A DNA stretch of 64,000 bases from Acidimicrobiia bacterium (GCA_018057765.1 JAGPDB010000004.1:12691-76690), one strand, 5' to 3'. Shown: positions 5,395-58,911, counted from the stretch's first letter. The notes: a model not told the origin generated them from the letters alone. Translations and numbers: made by a program.

Positions 5395-5480
5395 TTGACC
5401 ATACTAACACTTAGATATTGTTGTCCTATTAGATTTGCGATAGTGAATTATCGTTAAAATTATCCTAGAATATAAGGCTT

Positions 5481-6929: not shown

Positions 6930-7025
6930 GACTTATAGATTTAATTTAAAAAGTGTAAGCAAAGTTAAAATCTGTAAGCTAAAGTGTTCAATAGAAAATA
7001 GTTAAATTTAAACAAGGAGCCCTAA

Positions 7026-7661
7026 GTGAGCGATTTTTACATTCCAAACCCATCAGTTGTATATAAGAACAACCGTGGACAAGAAGTTTCAATGGATGTA
7101 TGGTCACGTCTTTTACAAGACCGAATTATATATCTAGGAACTCCAATTAATGATTCTGTTGCAAACATGATCATTGCACAATTACTACATCTTGAAAGCG
7201 AAGATCCAGATAAAGATATTTCAATTTATATCAACTCACCTGGTGGAGAAATCACTGGTCTATTTGCAATATATGACACTATGCAATTCATTAAATGTGA
7301 TGTTGCAACAATATGTATTGGTCAATGTGCATCTGCTGCAGCTGTTCTGCTTGCTGCAGGTACTAAAGGTAAAAGATTTGCACTTCCAAATGCACGTATA
7401 TTAATTCACCAACCACTTGGTGGAGCACAAGGACAAGCTACAGAAATAGAAATTCAAGCTAAAGAGATTTTAAGAATTCGTGCCGCACTTGATGATTTGC
7501 TAAGTGAAAAAACTGGACAAACTGCAGAAAAAATTCATGCTGATACTGATCGTGATTATATTATGAGTGCAGAAGAAGCAAAAGAATACGGAATGATCGA
7601 TGCTGTTATGACATCGCGTGATCTTTCAAGTGCTGCATTAGTTGCTGCGAGTTCAAACTAG
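7026..7661 (+). CDS. clpP: ATP-dependent Clp protease proteolytic subunit
   Basis: 211 aa with a GTG start after AAGGAG. Contains [22 protein letters not shown] (Ser), ILIHQP (His) and DTDRD (Asp). Only one clpP copy is present here. Confidence 0.93.
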
Positions 7662-7678
7662 TAAAGAGGTAAGTAATA

Positions 7679-8938: not shown

Positions 8939-9050
8939 AATTTTTCTGTGGATGATTTAGCTGAAAAGTATAAATCTTGTCACGCTAATTGATTCGTTTA
9001 ATTCGCAAAAATTCTCGTATATATATTAATTATAATGTAAACCTTTTGGT

Positions 9051-11564
9051 ATGAAATGCCGACAATATACTGTGGTTATTAGTAGATTAAAGATTCTATT
9101 GAGCATATTATTATGCAGTGTATTATATCTCGGCGTCTCAGTTCCTTCGTATGGAACTGATCAAGCAATTAAAGCTGATGTTAATGTTTCGCAAAAAGTT
9201 GAAATTGCAATTACAAAATCTGGTTCTGACAAGATTTCTGTAATTTTAGAATTAAATGATTACACCAATTCAGATTTAAAAAATTCTAGTGATCGTCGTG
9301 AATTAAAGAACGATCAAAATGACATTATCGATGATATAAATCTAGATGCTGATCTCACAACTAAATTTTCTCGTTTTCCACTTGTTGCGACAGAGATAAC
9401 TTCTGATCAGTTAGACCAATTAAAAAATGACTCAAGAATAAAATCTATCTCATTGCAAGAACGCTACACAATTGATGATTTAAAAACACAAGCAACTCTT
9501 GCCCCAATGGGAGTTCAAATTCCATCTGATATTTTAAATGCAAAGGATGCTTGGAACCATTCGCCGTCCTATACAGGTATAGGACAAAAAATTGTAATAC
9601 TCGATAGTGGAATTGACAAAAACCACCCATATCTAGATGGTGCTGTTGTACACGAAGAATGTTTTGCATCTGGGCCAATGCCAAGGACTCAAGGAGTTGG
9701 GTCTTGTCCTGACGGTACACCTGCACAATCTGGAAACGATTCAGCATTACCTTGTGACAGTTCTATTCCTGGTTGTTACCATGGTACACATGTTGCAGGT
9801 ATTGCAGCTGGTCGACAAAATGTTCTTGGGGCACCATCACAAGCTGCGGGTGGTGTTGCTCCTGGTGCTTCTATAATAGCTATTAGAGTTTTTGGTGTAT
9901 ATTCATCTGCTCCATATTCAACTGGTCAAGATTGTGGAAATAATAGTACCGGCATTCTAAAGAAGTGTATTTTGGCAGAAAATGTTGATATTCTTCTGGC
10001 ACTACAGTGGATTATTGCAAATCCTACTGGTGTGGCCTCAGTTAATATGTCTTTAGGTGGCATAGGTGTGACCAATAATGCCTGTGATGGTGTTTATGAT
10101 TACTATACAATTGAACAAGGTGGTGCTCCTGGTTTAGGTAATGCTGTTACATCATTGAAAAACGATTACAAAATTGCAACAGTAGTCGCATCTGGAAATG
10201 GTGGATCTAAAAATGGAATCTCAGCACCAGCATGTGTCACAGATGCTATTGCAGTAGGTTCAACCCAGACAGGAAATAGTGTTGTTAGTACTTCGAATAC
10301 AGGAGTTCTTTTATCGCTTTTTGCACCTGGAGATAATATTCTATCTAGTATTCCCGATGATGGATATGCCTATTCGGGTGGTACTTCAATGGCAGCCCCT
10401 GCTATTGCTGGAGCATTTGCTTTGATCAAACAAGCTGTTCCCTCTGGAACTGTTTCATCTTGGCTAACAAGATTCCAAAATTCAGGTACTAATATAATCG
10501 ATGGTTCACCAAGTATAACTCGCAAATTACCAAATATTTTAGATGCAATTAATAATGTTGCATCTTCGGTGCCGACTGCTCCTGGTTATGTCAATGCGAG
10601 TACTGGATATGGATATGCTTATTTAACCTGGTCTAGTGTCGTTGGTGCTAACTCATATCGGATAATCAATAGTAGTGGCAACACAATTGCAGATGTATCA
10701 TCTGGAACTACGGCATATAATGTTGCAACCATACCATATACAAATAATTATTTTGCAGTAAGGGCATCTAATAGTTCTGGTTCATCAGTGTATAAATATT
10801 CAAATAATATTGTTGGACTACCTAACACCTCTCAAGTTGGTTATACATTTTTTGCATCGAATGGAGCTACAGTTGGTTTTGGATCAGCTAGCCTAAGCAC
10901 ACATAGCAACTTAGGAATTAATAATGTAGTTGGTGGAAGTTCAAATCGTTATAGCACTGGTGCTTGGGGTGTATCATCAGCAGGAGACGTTTATTCATAT
11001 GGCTCCGCAGGATTTTATGGTTCTATGGGTGGACAGCGTTTGAATAAGCCCATGATTTCTATTGCCTCAACTGCAACTAGTAATGGTTATTGGATGGTTG
11101 CTAGTGATGGTGGTATCTTTAGTTTTGGTGATGCTCAATTTTATGGTTCGACTGGTTCAATCAGATTGAATAAACCTGTAGTCGGGATGGCACCTACTCC
11201 GAGTGGTAATGGTTATTGGATGGTTGCTAGTGATGGTGGTATCTTTAGTTTTGGTGATGCTCAATTTTATGGTTCGACTGGTTCAATCAATTTGAATCGA
11301 CCTATTGTTGGGATGACTCCTACTCCGAGTGGTAATGGTTATTGGTTGGTTGCTAGTGATGGTGGTATCTTTGCTTTTGGTGATGCTCAATTTGCTGGTT
11401 CTCTTGGGGGCCTAAATGTTAACGATGCTATTGGTATGAAACGTAATGATTCTGGAACAGGCTATTGGATCTTTAGATCTGACGGTAGTGTCTATAGTTT
11501 TGGATCGGCACCATTTCTAGGCCATGGTGCTGGACGAGGGCTTTCTTACGTCCAAGCTGGCTAA
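9051..11564 (+). CDS. Secreted subtilisin-like (S8) serine protease with FN3-like domain and C-terminal ~42-aa propeller-like repeats
   Basis: 837 aa with an N-terminal signal/TM. The catalytic triad is visible: VILDSGID (Asp), HGTHVAGI (His), GGTSMAAP (Ser). The FN3-like segment is AYLTWSSVVGANSYRI. There are 5-6 repeats of the form GYWMVASDGGIFSFGDAQFYGS. Confidence 0.85.
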   Translation: MKCRQYTVVISRLKILLSILLCSVLYLGVSVPSYGTDQAIKADVNVSQKVEIAITKSGSDKISVILELNDYTNSDLKNSSDRRELKNDQNDIIDDINLDADLTTKFSRFPLVATEITSDQLDQLKNDSRIKSISLQERYTIDDLKTQATLAPMGVQIPSDILNAKDAWNHSPSYTGIGQKIVILDSGIDKNHPYLDGAVVHEECFASGPMPRTQGVGSCPDGTPAQSGNDSALPCDSSIPGCYHGTHVAGIAAGRQNVLGAPSQAAGGVAPGASIIAIRVFGVYSSAPYSTGQDCGNNSTGILKKCILAENVDILLALQWIIANPTGVASVNMSLGGIGVTNNACDGVYDYYTIEQGGAPGLGNAVTSLKNDYKIATVVASGNGGSKNGISAPACVTDAIAVGSTQTGNSVVSTSNTGVLLSLFAPGDNILSSIPDDGYAYSGGTSMAAPAIAGAFALIKQAVPSGTVSSWLTRFQNSGTNIIDGSPSITRKLPNILDAINNVASSVPTAPGYVNASTGYGYAYLTWSSVVGANSYRIINSSGNTIADVSSGTTAYNVATIPYTNNYFAVRASNSSGSSVYKYSNNIVGLPNTSQVGYTFFASNGATVGFGSASLSTHSNLGINNVVGGSSNRYSTGAWGVSSAGDVYSYGSAGFYGSMGGQRLNKPMISIASTATSNGYWMVASDGGIFSFGDAQFYGSTGSIRLNKPVVGMAPTPSGNGYWMVASDGGIFSFGDAQFYGSTGSINLNRPIVGMTPTPSGNGYWLVASDGGIFAFGDAQFAGSLGGLNVNDAIGMKRNDSGTGYWIFRSDGSVYSFGSAPFLGHGAGRGLSYVQAG
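11079..11456 (+). repeat. Three tandem 126-bp (42-aa) coding repeats, units 1 and 2 nearly identical at nucleotide level
   Basis: TAATGGTTATTGG recurs at 11081, 11207 and 11333, giving a 126-bp period. A stretch of about 85 nt (ggttattggatggttgctagtgatggtggtatctttagttttggtgatgctcaattttatggttcgactggttcaatc) is identical between units 1 and 2. Confidence 0.9.
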
Positions 11565-39697: not shown

Positions 39698-41632
39698 ATG
39701 TATAAAATTAAAAAACTAGGTGCTGTACTGACTGTATTAAGTGCAATCGCATATATTGTTTTTAGAGCTAGTACTCTTACTTCGTCTGGATCATTATTTA
39801 ATGTAGTCTCTTTCGCGATAGAAACTACCTGTGCTTTAGCATTCGCAACTGAAGCAATTTTGCTTAGCGTAATAATGCCAACTAAGAAATTTCATTCAAG
39901 CGAAGACGAAATTATGCAGTCAGCATCTAGATTATTGTCGTCAAACACAACTGCGTCTAATTCAATTATAGGTGGTACTTCGGACACAAAAATTGGTGTG
40001 ACACAAGAGACTACAATTTCAAAATATATTGAGGAAGCTGATGTAGTTGTTTTTGTAGAGACAGCAACACCAGCTGATCTAAGAAGAAATTTCTTATCCT
40101 TAGAAGGTATTGAAGGTATTCATTCTGTTTTCGTAATTGATCCAACTCAATCAAGTTCCACAAAAGAATTATGTAAAGAATTTAGCCATGAGCTAATAAC
40201 AAATTTTTCTCAAACTGCAATTAATACTTCAACATATTTAGTATGTCGAGGTGTCGATATAATTTATCCAGATGTTCTGAACATCGCAAGACATTATGAT
40301 TTTAAAGGTAAGGCATGGCTTGAATTGCGAAGTGTTTATTCTGACGAACACGTATTTGGTGGTAAGAGTGAAGTAGTTATTGATGATAAGAGACAAATGA
40401 TCCGTGAATCTTTAAGTTCACGCTCACTAGCTCCATGGTCTACAGGTCCAGCCATAGTTGGAGTCGACAAGCTGGAATCATTTTCAAAAGTAACTCGTGC
40501 TCAAGATTTTTTCAACATTTGTGAAAAGAATTCGATTCATGGTGTAATTACTGAAGAAATCGCTTCTGAAGAACTATCACATGAACAAACATTCTCTGAG
40601 ATTTTGTGGAGAAACCTCGAAATGTCATATTTAGTAAAATCTTTTGGCGCTAAATATTCAAAATCTTCACAAAGAATATTAGGTACATTTATAAAAATAT
40701 TTTCATTCTTTTCGGTTACAAGTATTTTAAGGCGCCTTGCTTTATTAAGTGCAACTATTTATATTGTGCTTGTACCAAAAACAATTGAATATGTGGATTC
40801 GACATATGTCGCAATCTCTGCTGTTCTACTATGTCTTGCAGTCTTTGGTTCTTATATGGCTGGTGATAGAAGACCTTTCGTATTTAGAGTTAGAGAATTT
40901 TATTTTGATATCGAGGCAGTACTTTGGAATTTTTATAAAAAAACAATATTGAAAATGGATTACAAGAAAATGGTTAACCTGACAAAAAGAATGCCGGCAG
41001 TGTCCACATTGTTAATAGCAGCAGACGCAGCAATTGTGTATAGGGTTTATAGAGAATCAAATTTATTGCCAGGTGCTGGAGTGACAACCATTTCAAGAAA
41101 TATAACTATGATTGCTGGGTATGCGCTTATTGTCTCTCTACTTTTTGGACTCTCAATGGTTGTTGTTACTCAAATGCGAAAATCGATACGTCGTGAAGTT
41201 TCGCGAGGAGCTGTAGTAAACGAAGAGCCTGTTTCAATGGTAGACCTATCACCAGGAGGGGCTGGCATCATTTCTTCTGTGGCCTATAAAGTCGGAGAAC
41301 ATGTTAAATTTAAATCAAAATTATCTTCTCTAAATAATGAGCCGCTTGAATGCTCTGCAACAGTTCGGTCATGCTTTGAGAAAACTGGTAATTATAGAGT
41401 TGGTATAGAGTTTGATGAATTGATACAAGACCAAATTGATGAGTTAGAGACCTATTGCTTGGTGACGTATCCGCATTCATTGGCTCGCAATACTGATGGA
41501 GTCAGGGAAAGAAACGATTCATCTACCTCTAAAGTTGTTGGTAAGTCACAACGTAGAGCACTTGCATATGCATGTTCATTTGTTGCTTTAGGATCAGTGT
41601 TTTACTCGAATATCAGCCATTGGATTAAATAG
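39698..41632 (+). CDS. BcsA-like membrane protein: TMs + degenerate GT2-like cytoplasmic domain + TMs + C-terminal PilZ domain
   Basis: 644 aa. The PilZ signatures are intact right after a TM helix: RKSIR (RxxxR) and DLSPGG (DxSxxG), then GNYRVGIEFDEL. The central domain keeps GT2-like spacing (VVVFVETATP, VFVIDP, ITEE, ILWRN) but lacks clear DxD, TED and QxxRW motifs. Confidence 0.6.
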   Translation: MYKIKKLGAVLTVLSAIAYIVFRASTLTSSGSLFNVVSFAIETTCALAFATEAILLSVIMPTKKFHSSEDEIMQSASRLLSSNTTASNSIIGGTSDTKIGVTQETTISKYIEEADVVVFVETATPADLRRNFLSLEGIEGIHSVFVIDPTQSSSTKELCKEFSHELITNFSQTAINTSTYLVCRGVDIIYPDVLNIARHYDFKGKAWLELRSVYSDEHVFGGKSEVVIDDKRQMIRESLSSRSLAPWSTGPAIVGVDKLESFSKVTRAQDFFNICEKNSIHGVITEEIASEELSHEQTFSEILWRNLEMSYLVKSFGAKYSKSSQRILGTFIKIFSFFSVTSILRRLALLSATIYIVLVPKTIEYVDSTYVAISAVLLCLAVFGSYMAGDRRPFVFRVREFYFDIEAVLWNFYKKTILKMDYKKMVNLTKRMPAVSTLLIAADAAIVYRVYRESNLLPGAGVTTISRNITMIAGYALIVSLLFGLSMVVVTQMRKSIRREVSRGAVVNEEPVSMVDLSPGGAGIISSVAYKVGEHVKFKSKLSSLNNEPLECSATVRSCFEKTGNYRVGIEFDELIQDQIDELETYCLVTYPHSLARNTDGVRERNDSSTSKVVGKSQRRALAYACSFVALGSVFYSNISHWIK

Positions 41633-45101: not shown

Positions 45102-45689
45102 ATGAAGAGAATTTTTAGTAAATTATTTGGTGTAGGTGTAATTGTCCTTGGACTTTTTACAGCAGTTTTTGTGTGGAAAAAAAATACTGAATCAAGTGAA
45201 GTCAATTTCGTAGATGAGCTAGTTTCTAGTGTTTCGGGTTTACGTGAATGGAATAGTGCGTTATCTCGAGAAATTGTACGATCTCATAGAGATGCAAGAG
45301 ATGTGTGCGTAGCTGTTGTAAGTGTTGAGTCCTCTGTTGAAAGAATAAATAGTGAATGGTTAAGAGATGTTGAAGTTGAATTCGTGAAATCAGTCCGTGG
45401 ATCAGATCTACTCGCACATAATAGCAATGGTGAATTCTATTTATTATTTCCTGAAGCAGGCTTAGATGAAGGTTATGAAGCTATCGAGCGCATGAAAGGG
45501 TCTTTACCACAAGACACCATCATTAATGCTTCAGTGGCAGTTTGGGATCATTGTGAAACTGCTAGTGAATTAATGTCAAGATCTATAAATACTCTGCAGT
45601 CGGAAAAAAAGAATGTTTCTTCAAAGATTATTGTTAGTGAAGCACCTGTTAATGTAGCTCCGGTCACAGTTAAATCAAAAATCATGTAA
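45102..45689 (+). CDS. Membrane-anchored degenerate GGDEF-domain protein (A-site SNGEF, I-site RGSD retained)
   Basis: 195 aa. It has an N-terminal TM (LFGVGVIVLGLFTAVFVW). The pattern GLREWNSALSREI...VCVAVVSVES...VRGSDLLAHNSNGEFYLLFPE aligns with the GGDEF fold, with RxxD exactly 5 residues before the GGDEF position. Confidence 0.6.
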   Translation: MKRIFSKLFGVGVIVLGLFTAVFVWKKNTESSEVNFVDELVSSVSGLREWNSALSREIVRSHRDARDVCVAVVSVESSVERINSEWLRDVEVEFVKSVRGSDLLAHNSNGEFYLLFPEAGLDEGYEAIERMKGSLPQDTIINASVAVWDHCETASELMSRSINTLQSEKKNVSSKIIVSEAPVNVAPVTVKSKIM

Positions 45690-47588: not shown

Positions 47589-47645
47589 GTATTCAAGTAG
47601 CCGATAATATTGATATATTAGTTACAAATTTTAGAGGAGTAAATA

Positions 47646-48056
47646 ATAGATAATTTTGAAGGTATATTAAAAGCTGATCGTGATTTAATCGAGATCATTG
47701 TTAGTGCTGCCCAAGATAAAAAAGCCCAAAGTATTCAAGTATATGACGTAGGTAATATTATTGGTATTGCTCAGTACTTTGTTGTTTGTTCTGCAAATAA
47801 TGACCGTTTAGTATCAACAATTGTAGATTCAATTTTGCGTAAAGCTCGTGAAGGTTCGTATCATAGTGTCGGCCTTGAAGGTGACAAACAAAAAGAGTGG
47901 GTTCTAATCGATTTCGGCTCCATAGTTGTTCATGTTTTTCTTAATGATATTCGCGAATACTATCGTATAGAACGATTGTTCAAAGATTGTAAAAAGTATA
48001 GTTTCGAATCTGAGCAAATACAAAAAGGTGATGAAGAATCTATAGTTGCATATTAG
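47646..48056 (+). CDS. rsfS: Ribosomal silencing factor RsfS (Iojap-like); apparent non-canonical (ATA) start
   Basis: The ORF track starts at TTG 47835 (73 aa). The same frame is open back to stop TAA 47640 and encodes the conserved RsfS N-half (AAQDKKAQSIQVYDVGNIIGIAQYFVVCSANNDRLVSTIVDSI). GAGGAG at 47634-47639 precedes ATA ATA at 47643/47646. Confidence 0.7.
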   Translation: MDNFEGILKADRDLIEIIVSAAQDKKAQSIQVYDVGNIIGIAQYFVVCSANNDRLVSTIVDSILRKAREGSYHSVGLEGDKQKEWVLIDFGSIVVHVFLNDIREYYRIERLFKDCKKYSFESEQIQKGDEESIVAY

Positions 48057-48479: not shown

Positions 48480-49601
48480 ATGGAAAAATTGCGGATAGGA
48501 ATTATTGGAACTGGAATAGGTCTGCGACAAATTGCGCCGGGTTTTTTAAAAACTGGTCAAGTGGAAATTACTGCAGTTAGCGGAAGTAGCATCGATCGTA
48601 CACTTCTACATGTTCAAGAAAGTGCTATTGCTGGAAACAATGGTGTTGAATCAAATGATCTTTTAGTCACAGACGATTTTAAAAAAGTTTGTGATAGTAA
48701 CGATGTAGATCTAATATGTGTAACGACACCTAATGAATTCCATATTGAACAAATGGCGTATGCCTTAAATACTGACAAGCATATTCTCTTAGAAAAGCCA
48801 GTAGGTATGACTAAGCGAGAAACTGAAGACTTGGTAAAATTGCAAGGTAGCAAAAATCGTTTAGTAGTGGTCGATCATCAACTCCGTTTTAATCCTTATT
48901 TTGTGAAAATAAAGAAGCTAATAGAACACGGCAATATAGGGAAACCATATTATATTTCTATAAACCATGCTTCTCCCTGGATCATGGATAATAAACATGA
49001 TTATTTATGGTCATTAGATAAAGAACTTGGTGGGGGTGTGAGACTTGCTTTGGGTATTCATCTCATAGATCTGGTTCGGTTTTTTCTTGGGTGTGAACCA
49101 TATGCTGTTAGCGCAACATTGAATAATATTTTTTATACATACAATCCTATAGGATCAAAAGAATTTAATTCCCAGGTTTCTCTTTATTTTTCTGCTAATT
49201 TAAATTTTCCAGAATGTGATGTTGTTCTATCTAATAGTGCTGTCTCGCATAGCGGTTATCAATTCGATATGATGATCCGCGGAGATCAGGGTGAGATTGG
49301 CTTTAATCTAAAAGATAATGCCATATTTTATAAAAATAATAAAGACGGAGAAAAAATTATTAGTGATGATGCGACAAAAGAATATGACTTGCTCGGTGGA
49401 AATACAATATTCTGGAACTCATTCACATATTACGCACAAATTATTGTTGATGCTATACAAAATGGCGATAATAAAATAGTAAATGCTTCAGGCTTGGATG
49501 ATGCAATTAAAAATATGACAGTACTTGATGCAATGATGACATCTAGCCAAAATGGTACTCGCGAACTATTAGGTGAATGGCCAAAAAATCAATATTCTTA
49601 A
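48480..49601 (+). CDS. Gfo/Idh/MocA-family NAD(P)-dependent oxidoreductase
   Basis: 373 aa. The N-terminal Rossmann motif is LRIGIIGTGIGLRQ, and LLEKPV is the EKP motif. Confidence 0.8.
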   Translation: MEKLRIGIIGTGIGLRQIAPGFLKTGQVEITAVSGSSIDRTLLHVQESAIAGNNGVESNDLLVTDDFKKVCDSNDVDLICVTTPNEFHIEQMAYALNTDKHILLEKPVGMTKRETEDLVKLQGSKNRLVVVDHQLRFNPYFVKIKKLIEHGNIGKPYYISINHASPWIMDNKHDYLWSLDKELGGGVRLALGIHLIDLVRFFLGCEPYAVSATLNNIFYTYNPIGSKEFNSQVSLYFSANLNFPECDVVLSNSAVSHSGYQFDMMIRGDQGEIGFNLKDNAIFYKNNKDGEKIISDDATKEYDLLGGNTIFWNSFTYYAQIIVDAIQNGDNKIVNASGLDDAIKNMTVLDAMMTSSQNGTRELLGEWPKNQYS

Positions 49602-49859: not shown

Positions 49860-50108
49860 CTAGAAACCTATTCCAATTGTAGCTGGTGGCGGAACCGATG
49901 TTGTTATAGTTGTCATTTGTGGTTCATCTAATGGCTGACCAATGGTTGGTGAGCTCATAGTGACAGCTGGTGTATTAGGTTGGCGGCCTATCGGTGTTGG
50001 TGCCTCAGATGTTTGACCACCTAATACAAAAAATCCGCTACAACCACCTAATAACATGCTCAAAGCGGTTGGAGCTACTCTTTGCAAATTTTTCTTTAAC
50101 TTAGACAT
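49860..50108 (-). CDS. Small putative lipoprotein, Pro/Thr-rich
   Basis: 82 aa. MSKLKKNLQRVAPTALSMLLGGCSG is a lipobox-like LLGGC. The mature part is P/T/G-rich. I recognise no family. Confidence 0.45.
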   Translation of the reverse strand: MSKLKKNLQRVAPTALSMLLGGCSGFFVLGGQTSEAPTPIGRQPNTPAVTMSSPTIGQPLDEPQMTTITTSVPPPATIGIGF

Positions 50109-50184
50109 ATAATACCTCTCTTAGAAACACCCTTATTAGTGCAATTATGGACAAATAGCAAATAGCGGATATAGACGCTTTTTG

Positions 50185-50193
50185 TGTTATAAT
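50185..50193 (+). promoter_or_regulatory. Extended -10 promoter element (TGtTATAAT) upstream of the 155-aa ORF
   Basis: tgttataat lies 35 nt upstream of ATG 50228, with AAGGAGA as the RBS at 50214-50220. Confidence 0.4.
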
Positions 50194-50227
50194 TCATGTA
50201 TAAATAAATCGTTAAGGAGAATATTTT

Positions 50228-50695
50228 ATGACTGATAATAAAGATAATTCTGATGTAGCTGACATTGATTCATCTAATGACTATCGTGATCTATTCAAAA
50301 AGTACCCTGCTTTGCACGATATGTATCTTGAATTATTGTGCAATGTTCCTCTTGATGACAAACTCTTGGATTTTATAGATAATGTATTCTTGACACTACA
50401 GTCTCGTTTAAACTTTGATCCTGGTGATTATCAGGGAGCTACCCCTGATGATCTAACGAATGCTATAAAACCTGAATACATCTATTTGTGTAAACACCTT
50501 TTGACCGTGGATAAATCAGTTATTGGTGAATTTGTAAAATCTGGATTATTAGATCTTAATGGTATCTATAAAGAAATAACAGGGGATGATTCAAATCCAG
50601 ACGATATCCAAAAAGCAATAACTAATCTAGGCGAGGAGCGCGGTATCTCTGCACTCATTAATCCTGTGCCAGGTAGCCCAGGACTAGGTATATAA
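50228..50695 (+). CDS. Hypothetical small acidic cytoplasmic protein
   Basis: 155 aa, very Asp/Glu-rich, with no TM helix. It carries helix-cap motifs ATPDDLTNAI and SNPDDIQKAI. It converges on the 1029-aa gene with a 19-nt gap. Confidence 0.5.
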   Translation: MTDNKDNSDVADIDSSNDYRDLFKKYPALHDMYLELLCNVPLDDKLLDFIDNVFLTLQSRLNFDPGDYQGATPDDLTNAIKPEYIYLCKHLLTVDKSVIGEFVKSGLLDLNGIYKEITGDDSNPDDIQKAITNLGEERGISALINPVPGSPGLGI

Positions 50696-50714
50696 GGATT
50701 TTTTAGTTCTTAAT

Positions 50715-53700
50715 TTAGCAACCGACCGAATTAAGTAATGCGCTACTTTTAGGGCTAGTGGGAGTTCTTAGGAAACTTGCAGTTTCATTTCCTGGCCTGT
50801 TGAGAAAATCGGTAAGAGGACTTTCAAGAGGAGTTTCTCCATTTTTGTAACCTGCTAACGCCCTTCTTGATGTTCTGGTTAATCTACATGCATTGCCATT
50901 GGCAGTTGACACTGCCAATAGTGGAGCTTGTGTCTCTGGTAATCCCACGCTGTTCGCACCTGGTATTTGTCCACCAGTTATTAGTTCTGAGAAAGTTGTA
51001 CTAGTACCTATAAATGTACTGTTTCCTATAAACGAGGCACCGGGTTGTTTCGATTTGCCAACAACGTCCGGGCCACCTTGGTCTGATGGAAATAAATCAG
51101 CCTTTGAGCCATCAGGGTTGGTACAAGTATCATTTATGACATAGGCAGTTCTTATTTCAAACCATTGTTCTTCTCCATCATTTCTTCCACCTCCATTGGC
51201 AGTTGCCTGTACATTACATTCTGCTGTAATAACCTTTTCAGTCATTACAGGGCTAGGATCATTTGAGTATTCATGGAAAGTTAATTCTAACCTAAAATTT
51301 GTATTGTTAATATTTTCATCTTGAGCTATAGGTTTACTATTTATTATATCTCTAATGGCTGACATAGCTTTGTGCATATTTTGCTTCGCGTAGCCAGGAT
51401 TAGATTCATCAAGAAATGCGGTGTGGCCAGGATATTGGTAACGTCCTTGGCTAGCAAGCCTTGCATCCTTTTTATTTCCCTTGGCTATATGCCTAGCACT
51501 CCAATCGGTAAAATATGTACGACAGACCTTAAGCTTTCCGTTTGATGTTCGTTTGCCCTTTTTAGCTTCCACGCTTTGATAGATCGTAACTCCAACTAAT
51601 TTTGGTGGATTTCTACACGCATCAGGAGAATCGTCATCTTTCTCATTCTCAGGTTTCCAGTCTGTTTCCGCCGCTGGTTTAGTCCGAGGAGGTGTTTCTG
51701 TTATTACGGGAGGATTAGGATTTTCTATGGGTGGTGGCGTGGGGTATGGTTCTGGTTCTGGTTTTGGTTCTGGATCAGGTTTTGGGGTAGGATCAGGTTT
51801 TGGGGTAGGATCAGGAGTAGTGTCTATTCCGCCTTCGCCGTAAACGTCGTAAGTTGGATTATTTTTAGGTGGCGCTGGTGCTGGTTTTACTCTAGGTTTC
51901 TTCTTTACTTTAGGTTCTTGTTCCTTTTGTCGCGCCCGTTCTAAAGTGTCAATTTGTTCAGGGGTTGTACCCAGCCATGCGCTAGTTACTTTACCAACAT
52001 CACCATCTACTTTTATTCCAACTTTTTCTTGGAAGCCTTTAATAGCATCGATTGCTTCAACGCCTTCAGTGATTGGGAAACCATGTACGGCTAGTCTTCG
52101 ATTGATATATTCATTTTGAATATCTTCTGGAGGTCTGTCCAGCTGGGCGCGAGTTTTAGGGCCGATATCGCCATCTGGTTCTAGTCCAGCTTTTTCTTGG
52201 AAACCTTTAATAGCATCGACGTCTGGCGATCCATTACTTCCTGTCGGAAAACCTTGATCCCCAAGCCGTGCTACATCAATTTCTGCTCTAGTGGGAGGTG
52301 GTGGTATTTGTGGCGCAGGTTGGGCTGTTCTTGGTTGAGCTGTTTGTGGTTGAGCGATAGATGTTCCATCTCGACCCGATGGGCCTTCTGCTAGTTTCGC
52401 TCGAGTCTGAGGGCCAGCCTTACCGTCTACTTGCAGTCTGTGGTTTCTTTGGAAAAATTTTATTGATCGTGTATATGCTGCTAAATCATTTCCTCCACCC
52501 AAAATATTAAAATCGCCGAGTTTCCATTGGACCCATGGGTCGATCCCAGTACCGTTTGCAGCAGGAGCTTGTGATGAAGTTGTTGCACTACTAGCTGCTT
52601 TGGCTTGATCAAGTGCTGCTTGAGTATTTTGGCCAACTATACCGTCTTGTGGTAGTCCAGCATCTTCTTGGAATCTTTTTACTATATCAACTTCTTCTTG
52701 AGTGGGTGGTGTACCAGGTGTAGCTGACGGCTTAGAAGCTGGAGCAGGAGCAGGAGCTGGAGCATCAGTATTAGCAGCTGCAGCTTCAGCAGCTTGAACC
52801 CTTGCAGCACCGGCCTGTCTAATTAACGTTTCTAAAGCTTGTACAGTTTGAGGGTTAGGGTTTGGTGCACTCTGTGAAGGTACTAATTGTCCCTCAGGTG
52901 GAATGACATTACTAACCCGATTTGAGACATTTTGCAAATCCCCCAAGGTGCGGGCACCCGTATCAAGTTCTTGACCGCCACTATCTTTTGCCAATTTGTA
53001 TAGTCTGTCTACTTCCTCTCGGTCAATTCTGGCGTTACCGTTTTTCGGAAGACAAACAGCGCTAGCTTGACTGGCGCATTCTTGACTGGCTAAGGCTTCT
53101 GATGACGGACCAGGAGGTCCTTGGTCAAAAACAGTTTGTGCATCAGCAAGCATAGCGCCAGTTAAAACAAGCGGCGCGGCAAGAGCTGTTGCTCCAGCCG
53201 CTGGTGCAGCAGCTACTACTGGTGCGGCACCAACAATTGTTTCAGTGAGTCCTGGCACAGCCGCTGGTGATCCCTCGAATCCCTTATCCGGGTGGTTCGC
53301 TTCATAACTACTTGGATCCACTAAGGGATAAGGCGTTTCGGTTTCGTGATAACTTCCTGGGTCTTCAGGAGGATCAATTACTAGGCCACCTGTGACTGGC
53401 TTATTTCCAGTGTCCTGAGGTATTGTTCCTGTATATGGTCCTTTGTGGCCAAGCGCCGCATTTGTTTCCTCTACTGTTTGTGGAGCTCCATCGGATTCAT
53501 AAACCATAATTGTCTCAGCATTAGGTTTAGGGTTTGGATTAGGGTTTCCAGCGCTAGCTACCGGTGGGCCTTGTTGTGTTACAGATTCTAGAGATGTTTC
53601 GGATGCGCTAGCTGGGGAAGCTGTTACTGTATTGACACCAGCTAAACCTGAGGCAACAACGGTAACTGCTGTTACTGTTTTGCCTGCAGTATCCGCTAGC

Positions 53701-53804
53701 TTTCCAGTTCGTAATCCGGAAGCTGCAACCGCTGAAGTAATACCGTCACCTTGTGCTAAATCTTTTAATGCGCTTCTTTTCAATTTCCTTGTATGTTTAG
53801 ACAT
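50715..53804 (-). CDS. Giant envelope protein: N-terminal signal/anchor, Pro/Ala-rich low-complexity region, 4 PG_binding_1-like modules, Pro/Thr linker, ~315-aa Cys-containing C-terminal domain of unknown function
   Basis: 1029 aa. The hydrophobic N-region is VTAVTVVASGLAGVNTVTASPASA. The PG-binding-like repeats are VKRFQEDAGLPQDGIVGQNTQAAL, IKFFQRNHRLQVDGKAGPQTRAKL, IKGFQEKAGLEPDGDIGPKTRAQL and IKGFQEKVGIKVDGDVGKVTSAWL. The linker is PDPTPKPDPTPKPDPEPKPEPEP. Confidence 0.7.
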   Translation of the reverse strand: MSKHTRKLKRSALKDLAQGDGITSAVAASGLRTGKLADTAGKTVTAVTVVASGLAGVNTVTASPASASETSLESVTQQGPPVASAGNPNPNPKPNAETIMVYESDGAPQTVEETNAALGHKGPYTGTIPQDTGNKPVTGGLVIDPPEDPGSYHETETPYPLVDPSSYEANHPDKGFEGSPAAVPGLTETIVGAAPVVAAAPAAGATALAAPLVLTGAMLADAQTVFDQGPPGPSSEALASQECASQASAVCLPKNGNARIDREEVDRLYKLAKDSGGQELDTGARTLGDLQNVSNRVSNVIPPEGQLVPSQSAPNPNPQTVQALETLIRQAGAARVQAAEAAAANTDAPAPAPAPASKPSATPGTPPTQEEVDIVKRFQEDAGLPQDGIVGQNTQAALDQAKAASSATTSSQAPAANGTGIDPWVQWKLGDFNILGGGNDLAAYTRSIKFFQRNHRLQVDGKAGPQTRAKLAEGPSGRDGTSIAQPQTAQPRTAQPAPQIPPPPTRAEIDVARLGDQGFPTGSNGSPDVDAIKGFQEKAGLEPDGDIGPKTRAQLDRPPEDIQNEYINRRLAVHGFPITEGVEAIDAIKGFQEKVGIKVDGDVGKVTSAWLGTTPEQIDTLERARQKEQEPKVKKKPRVKPAPAPPKNNPTYDVYGEGGIDTTPDPTPKPDPTPKPDPEPKPEPEPYPTPPPIENPNPPVITETPPRTKPAAETDWKPENEKDDDSPDACRNPPKLVGVTIYQSVEAKKGKRTSNGKLKVCRTYFTDWSARHIAKGNKKDARLASQGRYQYPGHTAFLDESNPGYAKQNMHKAMSAIRDIINSKPIAQDENINNTNFRLELTFHEYSNDPSPVMTEKVITAECNVQATANGGGRNDGEEQWFEIRTAYVINDTCTNPDGSKADLFPSDQGGPDVVGKSKQPGASFIGNSTFIGTSTTFSELITGGQIPGANSVGLPETQAPLLAVSTANGNACRLTRTSRRALAGYKNGETPLESPLTDFLNRPGNETASFLRTPTSPKSSALLNSVGC
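51772..51815 (-). repeat. 18-bp tandem repeat (about 2.4 copies) encoding the PDPTPK linker
   Basis: ggatcaggttttggggta occurs at 51772 and 51790, with a partial third copy at 51808. Confidence 0.85.
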
Positions 53805-53912
53805 GGTGAATAAGTTACTAAATATATATGTAATTAGTCAAATCACGTTGAAAGCAACATTGACCACAAATAGTATTTATAGTACGATAGTGTATTCAAG
53901 GATGAGGCTTAT

Positions 53913-55004
53913 ATGACATATACAGATAGAAATCGATATTCAAGATTATTTGAGTGTGCTCCAGAACTTAAACGTGCCTCTAATTTTGTGGCAGATAATA
54001 AAGAACAAATACCACTAGAAGTACAGAAAGCATTTCAAGAATTATTAATTAAACTTGATTCTCTTCTAACCGAGAAAAATAACTTAAAAGAACCTATTAA
54101 TGACTGTAATATAGCATATAGCTCATTGTTAGCAGAAATAATTAAAGCACAGCCACACGACAAATCAGGTATTTTAAATGGTTTTAAGGATGCCGGAATT
54201 TACCCTAGCCTGCGATCGGATTCACTGCAAAAAATAAAAGGTATACGCTTTTCTTTTAGAAATAGACGCTTAGCAAAAACTGCTCAAGCACAATCGTGGC
54301 AATCAAATATTCTTTCAGGATTATATCCCGGAAGATTATTGGCAAAAGATATAAAAGACAGAGGAATAAACGGCAATGTTCCAGTTACTGTAGGAGTTGC
54401 TACAGTTGTGATAGCAGCAACATTACTCTACCCGCACGCAGGTAACACTCCTGGCGTTAATACGGGTAGGGTAGCAGCTGAACAATTAGATGATGCCCGC
54501 GTAGCTGTTGGAGATCAAATTGAAACTGTTAACTCAAAAGCAACTATAGATCGTACGGAACTTGAAGCATTTAATGCTGACCTAAAAGAGGCCGATGAGA
54601 GAGCAAAGACCGATGCTTTAATTGACAAACTAATTGCTGAAAAACTTGCTGCAGAAGAATCTGCTAAAAGAGCTCATGATCAAAAAGTTAGGGCAGAAGA
54701 ATCTGCTAGAAAAGCTAATGCTGAAAAACTTGCTGCAGAAAGTAGCCCTATACCTGTGAATGTTCCGACTGCTAAAGCGAACACTCCAAGTAGAAGTGGT
54801 GGTGCCTGTGCCAATTTGCCACCTGGTGTTAGAGAGTCATTAGAAGCTTGGTCCAAAAATGGTAAACTTCTAACTCCAGCGGAACAACGAAATGCAATAA
54901 ATGCTTTCGAAAAAAATGGCACACCAAGACTTGCAAAAGCTCTAGGTGCTGGTGGAAGTCAAGTTAATCCTCAGCTAGTTCTAGCTTGCCTAAGCGTTAA
55001 CTAA
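53913..55004 (+). CDS. Bitopic membrane protein with extracytoplasmic coiled coil (hypothetical)
   Basis: 363 aa. A ~150-aa N-domain is followed by one TM (VPVTVGVATVVIAATLLY). The charged coiled coil is AEKLAAEESAKRAHDQKVRAEESARKANAEKLAAE. The C-terminal ~70 aa contain two Cys. It is divergent from the 1029-aa gene. Confidence 0.55.
   Translation: MTYTDRNRYSRLFECAPELKRASNFVADNKEQIPLEVQKAFQELLIKLDSLLTEKNNLKEPINDCNIAYSSLLAEIIKAQPHDKSGILNGFKDAGIYPSLRSDSLQKIKGIRFSFRNRRLAKTAQAQSWQSNILSGLYPGRLLAKDIKDRGINGNVPVTVGVATVVIAATLLYPHAGNTPGVNTGRVAAEQLDDARVAVGDQIETVNSKATIDRTELEAFNADLKEADERAKTDALIDKLIAEKLAAEESAKRAHDQKVRAEESARKANAEKLAAESSPIPVNVPTAKANTPSRSGGACANLPPGVRESLEAWSKNGKLLTPAEQRNAINAFEKNGTPRLAKALGAGGSQVNPQLVLACLSVN
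54636..54740 (+). repeat. Direct 21-bp repeat (84-bp spacing) inside the coiled-coil coding region
   Basis: gctgaaaaacttgctgcagaa occurs at 54636-54656 and 54720-54740. gaagaatctgcta also occurs twice between them. Confidence 0.8.
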
Positions 55005-55041
55005 TTCTGTTTTTGCCCTGAACTCACTTTGTTAAGCAGTA

Positions 55042-56637
55042 TTGAATATGACTTTACTAGATAAATTAAGAAGAAAACCTAATAGTAAACCACATGGTGC
55101 TTTACTAGGAAACAACCCAAGTGAACAAGAATTATTAAATGAAATAAATTCTGAGAATCCTGATTTTCTAGCACTCAATGAATATTTTAGAAATGGTGGT
55201 GTTTTTACCGACCAGATAATTTTAGATTTGGCGAATGTTGATAACTTAAGAGATGGCTTCGGTTCTTATGCATTGCTTAACGACATTATTAAGATACGCT
55301 TTGTCATTGATCCAGTCGACGGCCTTAACCAAGAGTTAAAAAAATTAGCAAAACAACTAATACCAATTTTAGTTGAAAGAGGATATTCGACTTCTTTATT
55401 GCTTTTTTTAGATGGTGGAATTTTGCCAGATGATAATCAGATAATTACTTTGATTCAAAAAGACAAGATAAATCTTATTGTGCGCTATTTAGAAAAGACT
55501 TCTAAGCAACTTACACCAGACCAATTTGAAGCAGCTAAACAGAGTACATATTCTGAATTATACTTATCGACCAATGTAAAAAATGGCTATAGGTATACGC
55601 AAACACAATTAACTAGCTTTGTAGACCTTGCAGTTGAAAATAAGACGCGAGAATCTAGTCTGATCTTTGCACTTGGTAAATATCAGGCGGAAGATTTCAG
55701 CGCTCAAGCGCTAGCTACTTGTGTAAATAGTAACTCTGCTTGCCTTGTTTTTCTCGCAGTAAGAATCTTTGAAGCCGGTGCTTTGTGTAGCGACGAGATG
55801 AAAGTAAAATTACTTACAAATGCAAATGCAAATAAATTCAGTGCTCTAACTTCTGTTCTTAAATGCGATATTGTGCCACACGACCAAAAGCCAACATTTA
55901 GCGATGCTGAAATAGAACAACTTTTTGTTGACCTAAGTGATAGCAGCTCCGCGGGGAGCCTCTTAGCGCAAATTGCAATAAACCAAGATAGAAATAGAAA
56001 TGCAATAATTTCAAAATTAATTGCATGTAAAAAATTACATGGTGTAGAAGATAAAATTACAGGAAATTTAATAGATCCTAATACCGGCGACATATTAGTA
56101 AAACAAGGACGTCAATCATATAGAAGACTTGCCTATGTAGCACTAAATGAAATTGCTGCATTTAAACCAGAATGTTTATATCCATTCAAATCTGATTTAT
56201 TGAACCAACCATCAAGCAATACGGGAAATTTAAGGGTATTATCAACTGCTGTAGAGCACGGACTGATAATAACTGGTGATGAAAAAAAACTTATACAAAA
56301 TAAATTATCCAACTCTTTAAATATACTTTCAGTAAATGTATCAGAAAAACGGTTTGATGAGGCAGAATTCCCAGTTAATTATCCTTATTATTTGTGTCAG
56401 ATACTGGAAAACGCAGTTACCCAAAGTAACTTAACTTTCGATGACGCGGAAGTAGATTTGCTTTTGAAAAATTTTGCTCATGGACAAGTTAATTTACTCA
56501 AAGCACTTTGTACACGAGATCATCCTTTTACAGAGCCACAAATAAATATTATGAAAAGCAATTATCTTCTTCGAAGTTTCATGAGTTTACATGCGAATCT
56601 ACAGACCTCAGCAGTTACACCAGTTGTAGGTTTATAG
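55042..56637 (+). CDS. Hypothetical 531-aa soluble all-helical repeat protein
   Basis: It has no TM helix and no catalytic motif I recognise. Helix-cap motifs recur (LTPDQFEAAKQ, FSDAEIEQLF, FDDAEVDLLLKNF, FTEPQINIMK). It lies 37 nt after the 363-aa gene, so the two are a likely operon. Confidence 0.5.
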   Translation: MNMTLLDKLRRKPNSKPHGALLGNNPSEQELLNEINSENPDFLALNEYFRNGGVFTDQIILDLANVDNLRDGFGSYALLNDIIKIRFVIDPVDGLNQELKKLAKQLIPILVERGYSTSLLLFLDGGILPDDNQIITLIQKDKINLIVRYLEKTSKQLTPDQFEAAKQSTYSELYLSTNVKNGYRYTQTQLTSFVDLAVENKTRESSLIFALGKYQAEDFSAQALATCVNSNSACLVFLAVRIFEAGALCSDEMKVKLLTNANANKFSALTSVLKCDIVPHDQKPTFSDAEIEQLFVDLSDSSSAGSLLAQIAINQDRNRNAIISKLIACKKLHGVEDKITGNLIDPNTGDILVKQGRQSYRRLAYVALNEIAAFKPECLYPFKSDLLNQPSSNTGNLRVLSTAVEHGLIITGDEKKLIQNKLSNSLNILSVNVSEKRFDEAEFPVNYPYYLCQILENAVTQSNLTFDDAEVDLLLKNFAHGQVNLLKALCTRDHPFTEPQINIMKSNYLLRSFMSLHANLQTSAVTPVVGL

Positions 56638-58173: not shown

Positions 58174-58911
58174 TTGTCCGTTATGTGCTATAGTGGACAA
58201 ATGGGACTAGATAGATGGCATAGAACTAGAGTTTACGGAGTGGCATTCGCAACATTGTTCATAGGTAACTCGTTACAGTGTAAAAATGAAGCAAGTGTTA
58301 TACCGCCTGTTAATCAACCTGTATCTCGAGCTGCGAAAGCAGAAATAAAGGCTATTACAAATCAAAAAAAAAGTTTTTCGGATCTTGATAATTGGTCACA
58401 AATTGATCTTTTCGAAAGCATGGACAGTAAACAGATTCTCCAAACTATAGAAAACAACAATCTAAAATTTACAAGTGATACAAATTGGATGTTAGTAAAA
58501 GCAGCTCTAAACGGACTTCAGCCTGATGATATAAGACATTTACTTAAGAATGGTTACTTAACTATTGATGATAACACTCATCCTATTATCAAGAGAATGG
58601 CAATTAATAATACTGTTTTAGATTCTGATGAATTGCGCGACTTAATAAAAGAAGGAAAAATTTATGTGCCATTTGGAAGTACAAATAAAGGGCATGATTA
58701 TGACATAGATATAGGCATGGAAATGGAATTAAATCCTGAAGATATTGATGCTCTGAATAAAGCTGGTGTTATCGAAACCAACGATGTCAATAGCAAAACT
58801 TTCAATACTCCGCGGGATCCGTTTACAGCTAAAGAACTCAATGAAATGATTTGGGGAACTTATTCTGAAACAGAGCCACCACCCTCCCTATTTGGAGTTA
58901 GTTTTAATTAG
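58174..58911 (+). CDS. Hypothetical secreted protein with ~30-aa helical (ankyrin-like?) repeats; start may be ATG 58201
   Basis: The signal-like N-terminus is RTRVYGVAFATLFIGNSLQC. There are five spaced motifs: MDSKQILQTIENN, LQPDDIRHLLKNG, LDSDELRDLIKEG, LNPEDIDALNKAG and FTAKELNEMIWG. Its end overlaps the convergent ldcA-like gene by 4 nt. Confidence 0.5.
   Translation: MSVMCYSGQMGLDRWHRTRVYGVAFATLFIGNSLQCKNEASVIPPVNQPVSRAAKAEIKAITNQKKSFSDLDNWSQIDLFESMDSKQILQTIENNNLKFTSDTNWMLVKAALNGLQPDDIRHLLKNGYLTIDDNTHPIIKRMAINNTVLDSDELRDLIKEGKIYVPFGSTNKGHDYDIDIGMEMELNPEDIDALNKAGVIETNDVNSKTFNTPRDPFTAKELNEMIWGTYSETEPPPSLFGVSFN

Follow-up and report, generated by a model that had tools for sequence, protein, structure and literature searches.

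What do five adjacent genes with only one recognizable protein module among them do for a bacterium that keeps them beside its housekeeping genes, and do they act together at all? The question is raised by a stretch of 64,000 nucleotides (nt), GCA_018057765.1 JAGPDB010000004.1:12691-76690, which was analyzed at its full length and is here called the window, and whose source is labeled at NCBI as a metagenome-assembled genome, "Acidimicrobiia bacterium". At positions 49,860 to 56,637 it carries genes for an 82-amino-acid (aa) lipoprotein candidate, a 155-aa acidic protein, a 1029-aa protein with wall-binding repeats (hereafter the giant), a predicted 363-aa membrane protein and a predicted 531-aa helical protein. 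An earlier reading of this DNA, made without any searches (the sequence-only reading), had seen in them an envelope-spanning unit such as a wall tether or a wall-remodeling or secretion-associated complex. Our analysis points in another direction: given its restriction to few lineages, its presence/absence variation, the shuffling of its domains with a sharp breakpoint and its clustered nonsynonymous change, the locus behaves like one devoted to conflict or variation, its nearest likeness being a polymorphic toxin locus or a variable wall-protein locus. As to what it encodes, we tentatively favor, at somewhat short of an even chance, a bacteriocin-like, wall-tethered polymorphic exoprotein accompanied by a co-diversifying immunity partner.

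That the five genes belong together is indicated by a second copy of the cluster, to which a HMMER scan covering 1.84 billion representative proteins led; a word-indexed search covered 5.8 billion proteins. With the 531-aa protein and with the C-terminal domain of the giant as queries, the word-indexed search returned nothing outside the query's own cluster, and with the full giant it returned one relative (P0002); the HMMER scan with the 531-aa protein yielded only two homologous fragments, at 37-38% identity. These two fragments are located on the contigs L018 (JGI) and L019 (ENA), a pair with the same sequence over 12.2 kb; both carry homologues of all five genes in unchanged order and orientation: a 92-aa lipoprotein whose signal and lipobox are clear, a 153-aa acidic protein, a 1053-aa PG_binding_1 protein, a divergent 358-aa bitopic protein and the helical gene. 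Between the window and L018 the lipoproteins share 35% identity over 55 aa of low-complexity sequence, the acidic proteins 30%, the membrane proteins 42% and the helical proteins 37-38%, while the giants reach 71% as a mosaic. The L018 copy occupies a slot that differs from that of the window, between yraN/Rv1322-like and dprA and after ffh-rpsP-rimM-trmD-rplS, and represents either another species or a second locus of the same genome; since its housekeeping genes share the low GC content at third codon positions (GC3), its host would be a related low-GC actinobacterium. Because order and orientation are kept at 30-42% identity in two chromosomal slots, the five genes form, on this evidence, one co-inherited module, which bears out the supposition of the sequence-only reading that they are not a set of unrelated genes and would be found co-occurring and syntenic elsewhere. 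The relatives found for the giant comprise only P0002/L007 and the L018 protein; a scan of the GTDB species representatives, two scans of JGI metagenome contigs, two of IMG/VR and a tblastn search of phage and plasmid records returned nothing. The module is confined to a small clade of low-GC uncultured wastewater Actinomycetota, consisting of two or three closely related lineages, and the samples that yielded the contigs of the window species are wastewater metagenomes.

The coordinates and strands of the five open reading frames (ORFs), rechecked in the sequence, are those given by the earlier reading, as are the gap between the convergent acidic and giant genes and the region from which the giant and 363-aa genes diverge (Table 1); for the 531-aa gene, gene callers prefer the ATG at 55048, which gives 529 aa. 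GC3 of the five ORFs is 0.19-0.27, the same as in the housekeeping genes of the host, and GC1 lies well above GC3. A strong AAGGAG Shine-Dalgarno (SD) site stands before the 155-aa gene and SD-like sites also stand before the 82-aa and 363-aa genes, the 531-aa gene and the giant gene being without one, with none ahead of the ATG of the latter. The host-like GC3, the SD-like sites and the existence of homologues of all five at a second locus therefore argue that the ORFs are real, native genes. The GC content of the giant gene is raised (0.41-0.52), with the excess in GC1 and GC2, a consequence of the many Ala, Pro and Gly residues of the protein; horizontal acquisition, considered on account of this high value, was rejected in view of the host-like GC3. 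At the convergent junction no terminator or antisense structure rises above chance within the window, no actinobacterial LexA-box-like site was found in the intergenic regions of the cluster, 53805..53912 included, and the search for RNA families brought up none with a bearing on the cluster.

The giant is the protein around which the variation revolves, and its four PG_binding_1 repeats are, as the sequence-only reading had noted, the only recognizable module of the cluster (Pfam E=7e-26 in the giant, nothing significant in the other four proteins). The giant of L018 matches the same family at E=1e-23, and in the NCBIfam, PHROG and PDB searches the window protein matched SleB, L,D-transpeptidase and endolysins solely over their wall-binding regions. 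Its eight cysteines are arranged as four conserved pairs, the last residue of the protein included, in the window and L018 alike, and both types of C-terminal allele end in a cysteine with a second one about 50 residues before it; these paired cysteines argue for an exported protein, in which the order of the domains would set the C-terminal domain distal to the wall. The core of this domain has 26-29% identity to the L007/L018 type and keeps its four cysteines together with D767, H772, PGH792-794, NPxxAxQN and AEC861-863, and the conservation of His, Asp, Glu and Asn residues at 26% identity would possibly fit an enzyme. The core gave no PDB, Pfam, NCBIfam or PADLOC match, even with a profile of three sequences, and no plasmid or phage match. 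Neither a catalytic domain in the giant (amidase, M15, lytic transglycosylase, NlpC/P60 or L,D-transpeptidase) was recognized in the Pfam, NCBIfam, PHROG and PDB searches, nor a known trafficking domain in Pfam, and SLH, CWB2 and sortase signals were looked for in the giant and not found. An AlphaFold2 (AF2) model of the C-terminal domain is unusable (mean predicted confidence, pLDDT, 37).

The giant gene is a recombination mosaic that evolves by segmental recombination, as follows from a three-way DNA comparison of the window, L018 and L007, the last being a single Logan contig that could be partly chimeric. In the 5' part of the 363-aa gene, the intergenic region and the signal region, the window and L007 are ~80% identical and each of them is ~50% identical to L018; in the N-domain of the giant (~600 nt) the window is 99-100% identical to L018, and L007 has 75-95% identity to either; in the PG-binding block the window and L007 are 100% identical over ~850 nt and both have ~90% identity to L018; and in the C-terminal domain L007 and L018 are 85-100% identical to one another, the window sharing with each of them about 45-50% identity in DNA and 26-29% in protein. 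The PG-binding block is the best-conserved part of the giant across alleles. The breakpoint between the window and L007 lies at ~aa 640-650, at the start of the Pro-rich spacer, where identity drops sharply from 100% at the DNA level, and synonymous divergence (dS) inside this one gene ranges from 0.005 up to saturation. The mosaic of the window and L018 is seen in two assemblies, and L018 moreover has private differences (25 substitutions in aa 95-355). The ratio of nonsynonymous to synonymous divergence (dN/dS) is 1.22 for the C-terminal core in the comparison of L007 with L018; across the cluster it lies between 0.4 and 1.5, with a mosaic dS, and falls below 1 in most deep comparisons. The 363-aa protein is a mosaic as well, with a dS of 0.2 in its C-domain versus 1.96 in its cytoplasmic part. 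Within the window species itself, two contigs (L034/L035) whose flanks are 99.8% identical to the window carry a fourth allele of the N-domain of the giant, here called Z, which agrees with the window throughout aa 1-64 and over the remainder has ~30-35% protein identity and no DNA similarity to it. Many contigs of this species stop within the giant gene.

A second layer of variation emerges when 24 contigs of the near-clonal window species are compared with the window. In housekeeping genes the density of segregating sites is 0-8 per kb, for most of them zero, and it rises to 28 per kb in the lipoprotein gene (nonsynonymous to synonymous sites 4:3), 36 in the acidic gene (15:2), 19 in the core of the C-terminal domain (8:4) and 49 in the tail of the giant, aa 936-1029 (9:5), the highest value in the window. 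Taken together, 50 of the 94 segregating sites fall within 1.6 of 19 kb (binomial p=1e-28), namely in the lipoprotein gene, the acidic gene and the C-terminal domain of the giant, and the ratio of 15:2 in the acidic gene differs from that of 1:8 in the adjacent metY (Fisher p=2e-4). The variants of the acidic gene are biallelic sites that occur in many combinations, which points to recombination between old alleles. The type of the C-terminal domain and the type of the acidic gene co-segregate, in that L007 has an L018-type domain together with an L018-type end of the acidic gene, despite its window-like 5' half. As a separate observation, three substitutions within 32 nt of the stretch that separates the divergent lipoprotein and acidic genes (50133, 50148 and 50164) set the window apart from almost all other contigs of the species, even from one that is otherwise identical over 23 kb.

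The module is dispensable, that is, accessory. Six contigs (L022-L027), read from the 24 that hold a remnant, have flanks 99% identical to L018 and lack its positions 4676-10664 (5,989 bp), a loss seen in most contigs of the second lineage. One breakpoint lies inside the lipoprotein gene and the other in the helical gene, 91 nt past the start of its second half, with a 281-aa remnant persisting, so that these contigs represent a deletion rather than an empty insertion site. Milder decay affects copies that are otherwise kept: the helical gene has one in-frame stop in L018, L019 and L020 and a further deletion of ~300 nt in L021, from a 93%-identical lineage, and the start codon of the lipoprotein gene is lost in L015 (M1K), 6 of 14 cluster variants being called from M18. 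In one further contig of a single sample (L033; ERZ724520, 3.5x coverage), six substitutions within 21 nt at 1091-1111, corresponding to window 51543-51563, create a stop at codon ~752 of the giant gene and split it into 751 aa and a C-terminal ORF of 220 aa, which could be either a real truncation or an assembly error.

Of the smaller proteins, the 82-aa one matches the PS51257-type lipobox expression (...SMLLGG|C23), in keeping with its earlier description as a putative lipoprotein, and so does its 92-aa counterpart (...VAVTLG|C27). The 155-aa protein is acidic, as had been stated (pI 4.2), and has no signal peptide and no hydrophobic or transmembrane (TM) segment; it gave no family match in Pfam, NCBIfam, PHROGs, PADLOC or PDB, Imm and SUKH included. 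Its L018 homologue takes the same convergent position, with a gap of 17 nt, and of the L007 homologue the C-terminal end is visible. For the 363-aa protein the single TM helix and coiled coil proposed earlier correspond to one hydrophobic segment (aa 156-176) followed by Ala/Glu/Lys-rich 14-aa tandem repeats, which predicts a cytoplasmic N-domain, a TM segment, the repeats and an extracytoplasmic C-domain with two cysteines (aa 291-363) that bears the motif GACANLPxGVRxSxxAWxKxGKLLTPA...ALGAGGxQxNPxLVxACL. L007 (58% over 205 aa) and L018 (42%) have homologues in a matching divergent position, and neither a family nor a PDB match was obtained; an assignment as anti-sigma factor or PcsB-type protein was dropped, there being only low-complexity coiled-coil noise behind it. 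The 531-aa protein indeed has no clear TM segment and an all-helix AF2 model, so that the earlier claim of a soluble, all-helical protein stands in its first part and in its second is supported at low confidence (pLDDT 48). Foldseek on this model found only generic ARM/HEAT/PUF solenoids (E>=5e-3), and the poor quality of both models results from alignments that hold only one or two sequences.

Two further assignments were tried and rejected. A RavZ-like cysteine protease was suggested for the 531-aa protein by single-sequence matches (E=0.017-0.056), which have Asp, Glu and Ser at the triad positions, concern an all-helical model and are lost (E>10) with a two-sequence profile. A link to ESX or type VII secretion systems (T7SS) came down to sub-threshold matches to TPR_23 (EspA-like) on the Ala/Glu/Lys repeats (E=0.017 and 0.18, cut-off 27 bits). 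Overall, no profile or structure match places any of the five proteins in an unrelated characterized family, and the locations predicted by the sequence-only reading (exported and wall-bound, lipoprotein, bitopic and cytoplasmic) are plausible by hydropathy and lipobox.

Table 1. Positions of the genes, intergenic regions and protein segments of the cluster, in window coordinates.
Feature	Position	Strand	Remarks
82-aa Pro/Thr-rich small lipoprotein candidate	49860..50108	-	ORF; GAGAGG SD-like site 8 nt upstream
Divergent region, lipoprotein/acidic genes, 119 nt	50109..50227		contains the AAGGAG site of the 155-aa gene
155-aa acidic protein, candidate cognate partner/immunity protein of the giant C-terminal domain	50228..50695	+	strong SD
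Gap between convergent stop codons, 19 nt	50696..50714		tight convergence kept in L018
1029-aa giant: exported (predicted), disulfide-rich (putative), wall-binding protein	50715..53804	-	recombination mosaic
Giant aa 936-1029, Gly/Ser/Thr/Pro-rich tail	50718..50999	-	closed by C973...C1029 (terminal residue)
Giant aa 728-935, C-terminal domain core, alpha+beta	51000..51623	-	no known family
Giant aa 641-727, Pro-rich spacer (33% Pro; PDPTPKPDPTPKPDPEPKPEPEP)	51624..51884	-	recombination breakpoint at start
Giant aa ~366-614, four PG_binding_1 repeats	51963..52709	-	Pfam PF01471, E=7e-26, 4 stretches
Giant aa 71-355, N-domain	52740..53594	-	conserved Ala/Pro-rich hydrophobic segment aa 186-222; C243/C251 pair
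Giant aa 1-70, basic N-region and moderately hydrophobic stretch ending ASPASA|SE	53595..53804	-	putative signal peptide or anchor, by sequence and hydropathy only
Divergent intergenic region, giant/363-aa genes, 108 nt	53805..53912		~89% identical to L007, ~50% to L018
363-aa bitopic membrane protein (predicted)	53913..55004	+	hydropathy, repeats, homologues in L007 and L018
363-aa protein, predicted TM segment	54378-54440	+	hydropathy/repeat analysis
363-aa protein, repeats	54630-54740	+	hydropathy/repeat analysis
363-aa protein, C-domain	54783-55001	+	hydropathy/repeat analysis
531-aa cytoplasmic all-helical protein (predicted)	55042..56637	+	low-confidence AF2 model

In the bacteriocin-like reading, the giant would be exported by means of its N-terminal signal or anchor and held by its four PG_binding_1 repeats in the peptidoglycan of the producer, of the target or of both, with the Pro-rich spacer presenting a disulfide-stabilized C-terminal domain that would carry the activity. 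The convergent 155-aa cytoplasmic protein would be the neutralizing immunity partner, co-diversifying with the C-terminal domain and tail; release, or protection outside the membrane, might be the task of the small lipoprotein, and the 363-aa membrane and 531-aa helical proteins might assist export, anchoring or control. That the cluster represents, beyond this, an undescribed actinobacterial system of antagonism or self-recognition, without homology to known systems in any of its five parts, in which a wall-tethered exoprotein with independently polymorphic N and C domains, a convergent co-diversifying cytoplasmic partner, a lipoprotein and a membrane/cytoplasmic pair are recombined between loci or lineages and gained and lost as a block, is a prospect we regard with more doubt than belief, but by no means as fanciful.

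Several findings weigh against this reading and account for its tentative wording. No toxin, immunity or trafficking family was detected in Pfam, NCBIfam, PHROGs, PADLOC or PDB, and the tblastn search of the window, L022, L029 and L018 with both types of C-terminal domain and both acidic proteins returned the cluster copies alone and no orphan cassettes of C-terminal domain and immunity gene. The candidate immunity gene lies on the opposite strand, and its product has no TM segment, unlike the immunity proteins of pore-formers; deletion variants, furthermore, retain no immunity gene. The N-domain is itself deeply polymorphic (the Z allele), which is unusual for trafficking domains, and the two types of C-terminal domain are divergent homologues rather than unrelated toxin folds. 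In charge, the C-terminal domain and the acidic protein complement each other only in the window (pI 8.6 versus 4.2) and not in L018 (4.4 versus 4.6). As regards the population data, the excess of nonsynonymous sites in the acidic gene does not reach significance against the neutral expectation (p=0.23), the co-segregation concerns three alleles only, and these of physically adjacent genes, and the L007 mosaic is that of the one, possibly partly chimeric, Logan contig.

Comparison with characterized systems places the cluster near several of them and inside none. Polymorphic toxin systems rest on a secreted multidomain protein with an N-terminal trafficking module and a variable toxin C-terminus (Zhang et al. 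2012; Jamet & Nassif 2015, PMC4436062); their immunity gene lies directly downstream on the same strand, orphan cassettes nearby being frequent but not obligatory, and WapA is a wall-associated, signal-peptide-bearing example in monoderms (PMC4436062). With WapA/WapI of Bacillus subtilis the cluster has in common a large, wall-associated multidomain protein, exported as far as can be predicted, and a small adjacent gene that varies along with it, and with polymorphic toxin systems at large a C-terminal domain that diverges past a sharp breakpoint after a shared upstream region (window versus L007). It differs from them by the absence of RHS/YD, LXG and any other module known from trafficking or repeat regions, by proteins that match none of the known families of toxins or immunity proteins, by a partner gene that is convergent (19 nt; 17 nt in L018) instead of following downstream on the same strand, by the lack of orphan cassettes, by its polymorphic N-domain and by the three further conserved genes of the block.

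The gene clusters of pore-forming colicins have an opposite-strand immunity gene after the colicin gene and a small lysis lipoprotein gene last (PMC4436062, PMC9517006), an arrangement that recurs here in layout only, as the giant (-), the convergent 155-aa gene (+) and then the gene of the 82-aa lipobox protein (-). Unlike colicins, the cluster is chromosomal, belongs to a monoderm actinobacterium and has no sequence homology to colicin domains; its convergent protein is soluble and acidic rather than an integral membrane protein, the LexA-box-like site is missing, and the signal-like N-terminus of the giant makes a lysis-dependent release not obviously necessary. Colicins evolve by domain shuffling, and divergence clustered at the 3' end of the toxin gene and in the adjacent small gene reportedly is the classic pattern of the nuclease-colicin immunity region, as Riley is said to have described in 1993; both traits, divergence at the 3' end of the large gene and its neighbor and domain shuffling, are found in the present cluster. 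The slpA cassette types of Clostridioides difficile are another instance of variable S-layer or wall proteins with a conserved anchoring module, and they resemble the cluster in that a conserved wall-binding module stands beside deeply divergent alleles of exposed domains which recombine within a species at a fixed position, with accessory genes nearby; the anchor of the cluster, however, is PG_binding_1 and not CWB2/SLH, and its linked hypervariable cytoplasmic protein has no slpA counterpart. Finally, SleB, L,D-transpeptidases, phage endolysins and zinc D-Ala-D-Ala carboxypeptidase share the PG_binding_1 repeats with the giant, which matches these wall enzymes in the binding repeats only and in none of their catalytic domains.

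The likeness to slpA introduces the main alternative, that the giant is a variable surface or wall protein (S-layer-, adhesin- or phage-receptor-like), a wall-anchored display device whose exposed N and C domains have been diversified and whose divergent alleles are kept by pressure from phages, grazers or attachment partners, with the acidic protein as cytoplasmic export chaperone and the lipoprotein, membrane and helical proteins as helpers of assembly or anchoring. We hold this to be possible, if on balance unlikely. It would accommodate the fact that the wall-binding middle is most conserved and both flanking domains form deep allelic classes in one species, the resemblance of the hypervariable, Cys-closed C-terminal loop to an exposed epitope, and an order of membrane-proximal N-terminus, PG-binding repeats, Pro-rich spacer and distal domain that is suited to display, and it is eased by the same lack of any detected toxin or immunity family, and of an orphan immunity gene after loss of the cluster, that burdens the bacteriocin-like reading. 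Surface exposure does not predict, however, that a signal-less cytoplasmic protein, the acidic one, should have the strongest nonsynonymous bias at a near-top density of sites (15:2, 36 per kb); the polar and His positions that stay conserved in the C-terminal domain resemble those of an enzyme more than those of an adhesin, and the missing SLH, CWB2 and sortase signals count against a surface protein too. The two independently polymorphic domains shuffled by recombination in one species, the numerous haplotype combinations and the life of the hosts in wastewater and activated-sludge communities might otherwise reflect non-lethal self/non-self recognition or cell-cell adhesion for floc life, the giant binding allele-specifically and its partners setting or transmitting identity; as this proposal is built purely on the population pattern, has no homology with known recognition systems behind it and leaves the variation of the cytoplasmic acidic protein unexplained unless that protein is the identity determinant, we judge it decidedly improbable.

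Were the five genes a housekeeping envelope module, in which a peptidoglycan tether or novel wall hydrolase is regulated across the membrane by the coiled-coil and helical proteins, much as wall hydrolases have coiled-coil regulators, their dispensability and frequent decay, their restriction to a tiny clade, a dN/dS of 0.4-1.5 on a mosaic dS and the failure to recognize any hydrolase domain would be hard to explain, so that we regard this as improbable; it draws on the four PG_binding_1 repeats, the housekeeping genes that are the chromosomal neighbors and the coiled-coil-like segment of the bitopic protein with its weak match to the PcsB coiled coil (E=0.007, far below cut-off), but this match and that to the EspA-TPR sit on low-complexity Ala/Glu/Lys repeats. 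The wall tether, wall-remodeling or secretion complex envisaged by the sequence-only reading is disfavored likewise, by the deletion, the nonsense codon, the start loss, the tiny clade, the recombination and the clustered nonsynonymous change. Least credible of all, to the point of being nearly negligible, is the idea that the ORFs are unrelated or are decaying, strain-specific junk with no joint function, for which one might cite the absence of known families, the stop in the helical gene of L018, the loss of the lipoprotein start and the truncated giant of L033; the five-gene order kept in two slots at 30-42% identity largely refutes it, together with a dN/dS <1 in most deep comparisons, and codon-position GC of the coding type, SD-like sites, strongly conserved motifs (DHPFTEPQ, LLAQIAINQ, GACANLP...) and the retention of the cluster in 24 of the 24 window-species contigs read speak against it as well.

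The chromosomal setting is one of housekeeping genes: the window runs through tig-clpP-clpX, an S8 protease, valS-folC, efeUOB and mreBCD-pbp2-rodA to rplU-rpmA-obg-proB-proA-nadD-rsfS, a gene order that fits an Actinomycetota host. The cluster had been placed between rsfS and leuS, in what was taken for a variable slot. It does not adjoin these two genes directly: DUF378 and a GFO/IDH/MocA oxidoreductase separate it from rsfS, a MetY-like enzyme, a 245-aa ORF, an LD-carboxypeptidase, a glyoxalase-like ORF, a major facilitator superfamily (MFS) transporter and tRNA-Ala intervene before leuS, and the slot is not visibly variable, the cluster being there in all 24 contigs of the species that were read. 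The possibility that the cluster is cargo of a mobile element was rejected as well; its borders have no flanking repeats, integrase or tRNA, PHROG and PADLOC match nothing except the wall-binding repeats, and tblastn searches of IMG/VR and of phage and plasmid records gave zero matches.

Some observations on the neighboring genes stand apart from these arguments. The oxidoreductase adjoining the cluster (window 48480-49601, L030 606-1726) is split into 213 and 160 aa in one Logan contig, has 7 nonsynonymous to 2 synonymous segregating sites, above other flanking genes, and has no close relative in a scan of GTDB species representatives. The 245-aa ORF (58174-58911, +; pI 4.9) belongs to no family, overlaps the end of the LD-carboxypeptidase gene by 4 nt and varies in its start between assemblies (223-242 aa); as it has no counterpart at the second locus, it lies outside the module. 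For rsfS (~47640-48056, +) the frame is open far upstream of the TTG start that was picked, and the differing calls between assemblies (73, 107 or 137 aa) suggest an ambiguous or non-canonical start codon rather than a frameshift. At the second locus two extra small genes stand between yraN and the cluster (L018 4241-4592, -), one for a 78-aa Rv1322-like protein of zinc-ribbon type, which is retained in the deletion variants and has no counterpart beside the window cluster, and one for a hydrophobic peptide of 37 aa that weakly matches DUF6893. The second lineage further carries, between ftsY and ffh, a 735-aa ORF with no Pfam family (L022 2234-4441, -), split into 471 and 219 aa in L025 (2234-3649, 3782-4441), possibly a variable orphan in a housekeeping block.

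Farther from the cluster, three ORFs with no Pfam or NCBIfam family at 315-1343 (+), 1472-2413 (-) and 2420-4417 (-), of 342, 313 and 665 aa, adjoin tRNA-Gly (4419-4493) and tRNA-Pro (4546-4623) and perhaps represent another group of orphans or a small island, the 665-aa gene having the lowest GC content of the window (0.284). A 195-aa ORF with an N-terminal hydrophobic segment lies between a MerR-like gene and proA (45102-45689, +) and gives a weak GGDEF/diguanylate-cyclase-like match (SiaD model, E=7e-5, far under cut-off), and a 644-aa PilZ-domain protein is encoded at 39698-41632. The 837-aa Peptidase_S8 protein at 9051-11564 (+) has as its best NCBIfam match a T7SS mycosin model, at 81 bits versus a cut-off of 279, and no ESX genes were seen within the window.

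These findings bear on how uncultured bacteria of this kind may compete and vary. The reach of the locus is limited, its carriers being only two or three closely related lineages, and to our knowledge little has been charted in Actinomycetota of large protein bacteriocins or of toxins that act by contact. If the bacteriocin-like reading is true, the cluster would give monoderm Actinomycetota a new weapon-and-antidote family made of proteins, encoded by abundant wastewater bacteria that have not been cultured and comprising a new wall-targeting delivery scaffold, effector domain and immunity fold in a colicin-like layout that would have arisen independently. If instead the giant is a variable surface protein, the locus would still be a clean example, in nature, of how balancing selection and segmental recombination act on an environmental population that is close to clonal, and one that could be tracked in existing metagenome time series.

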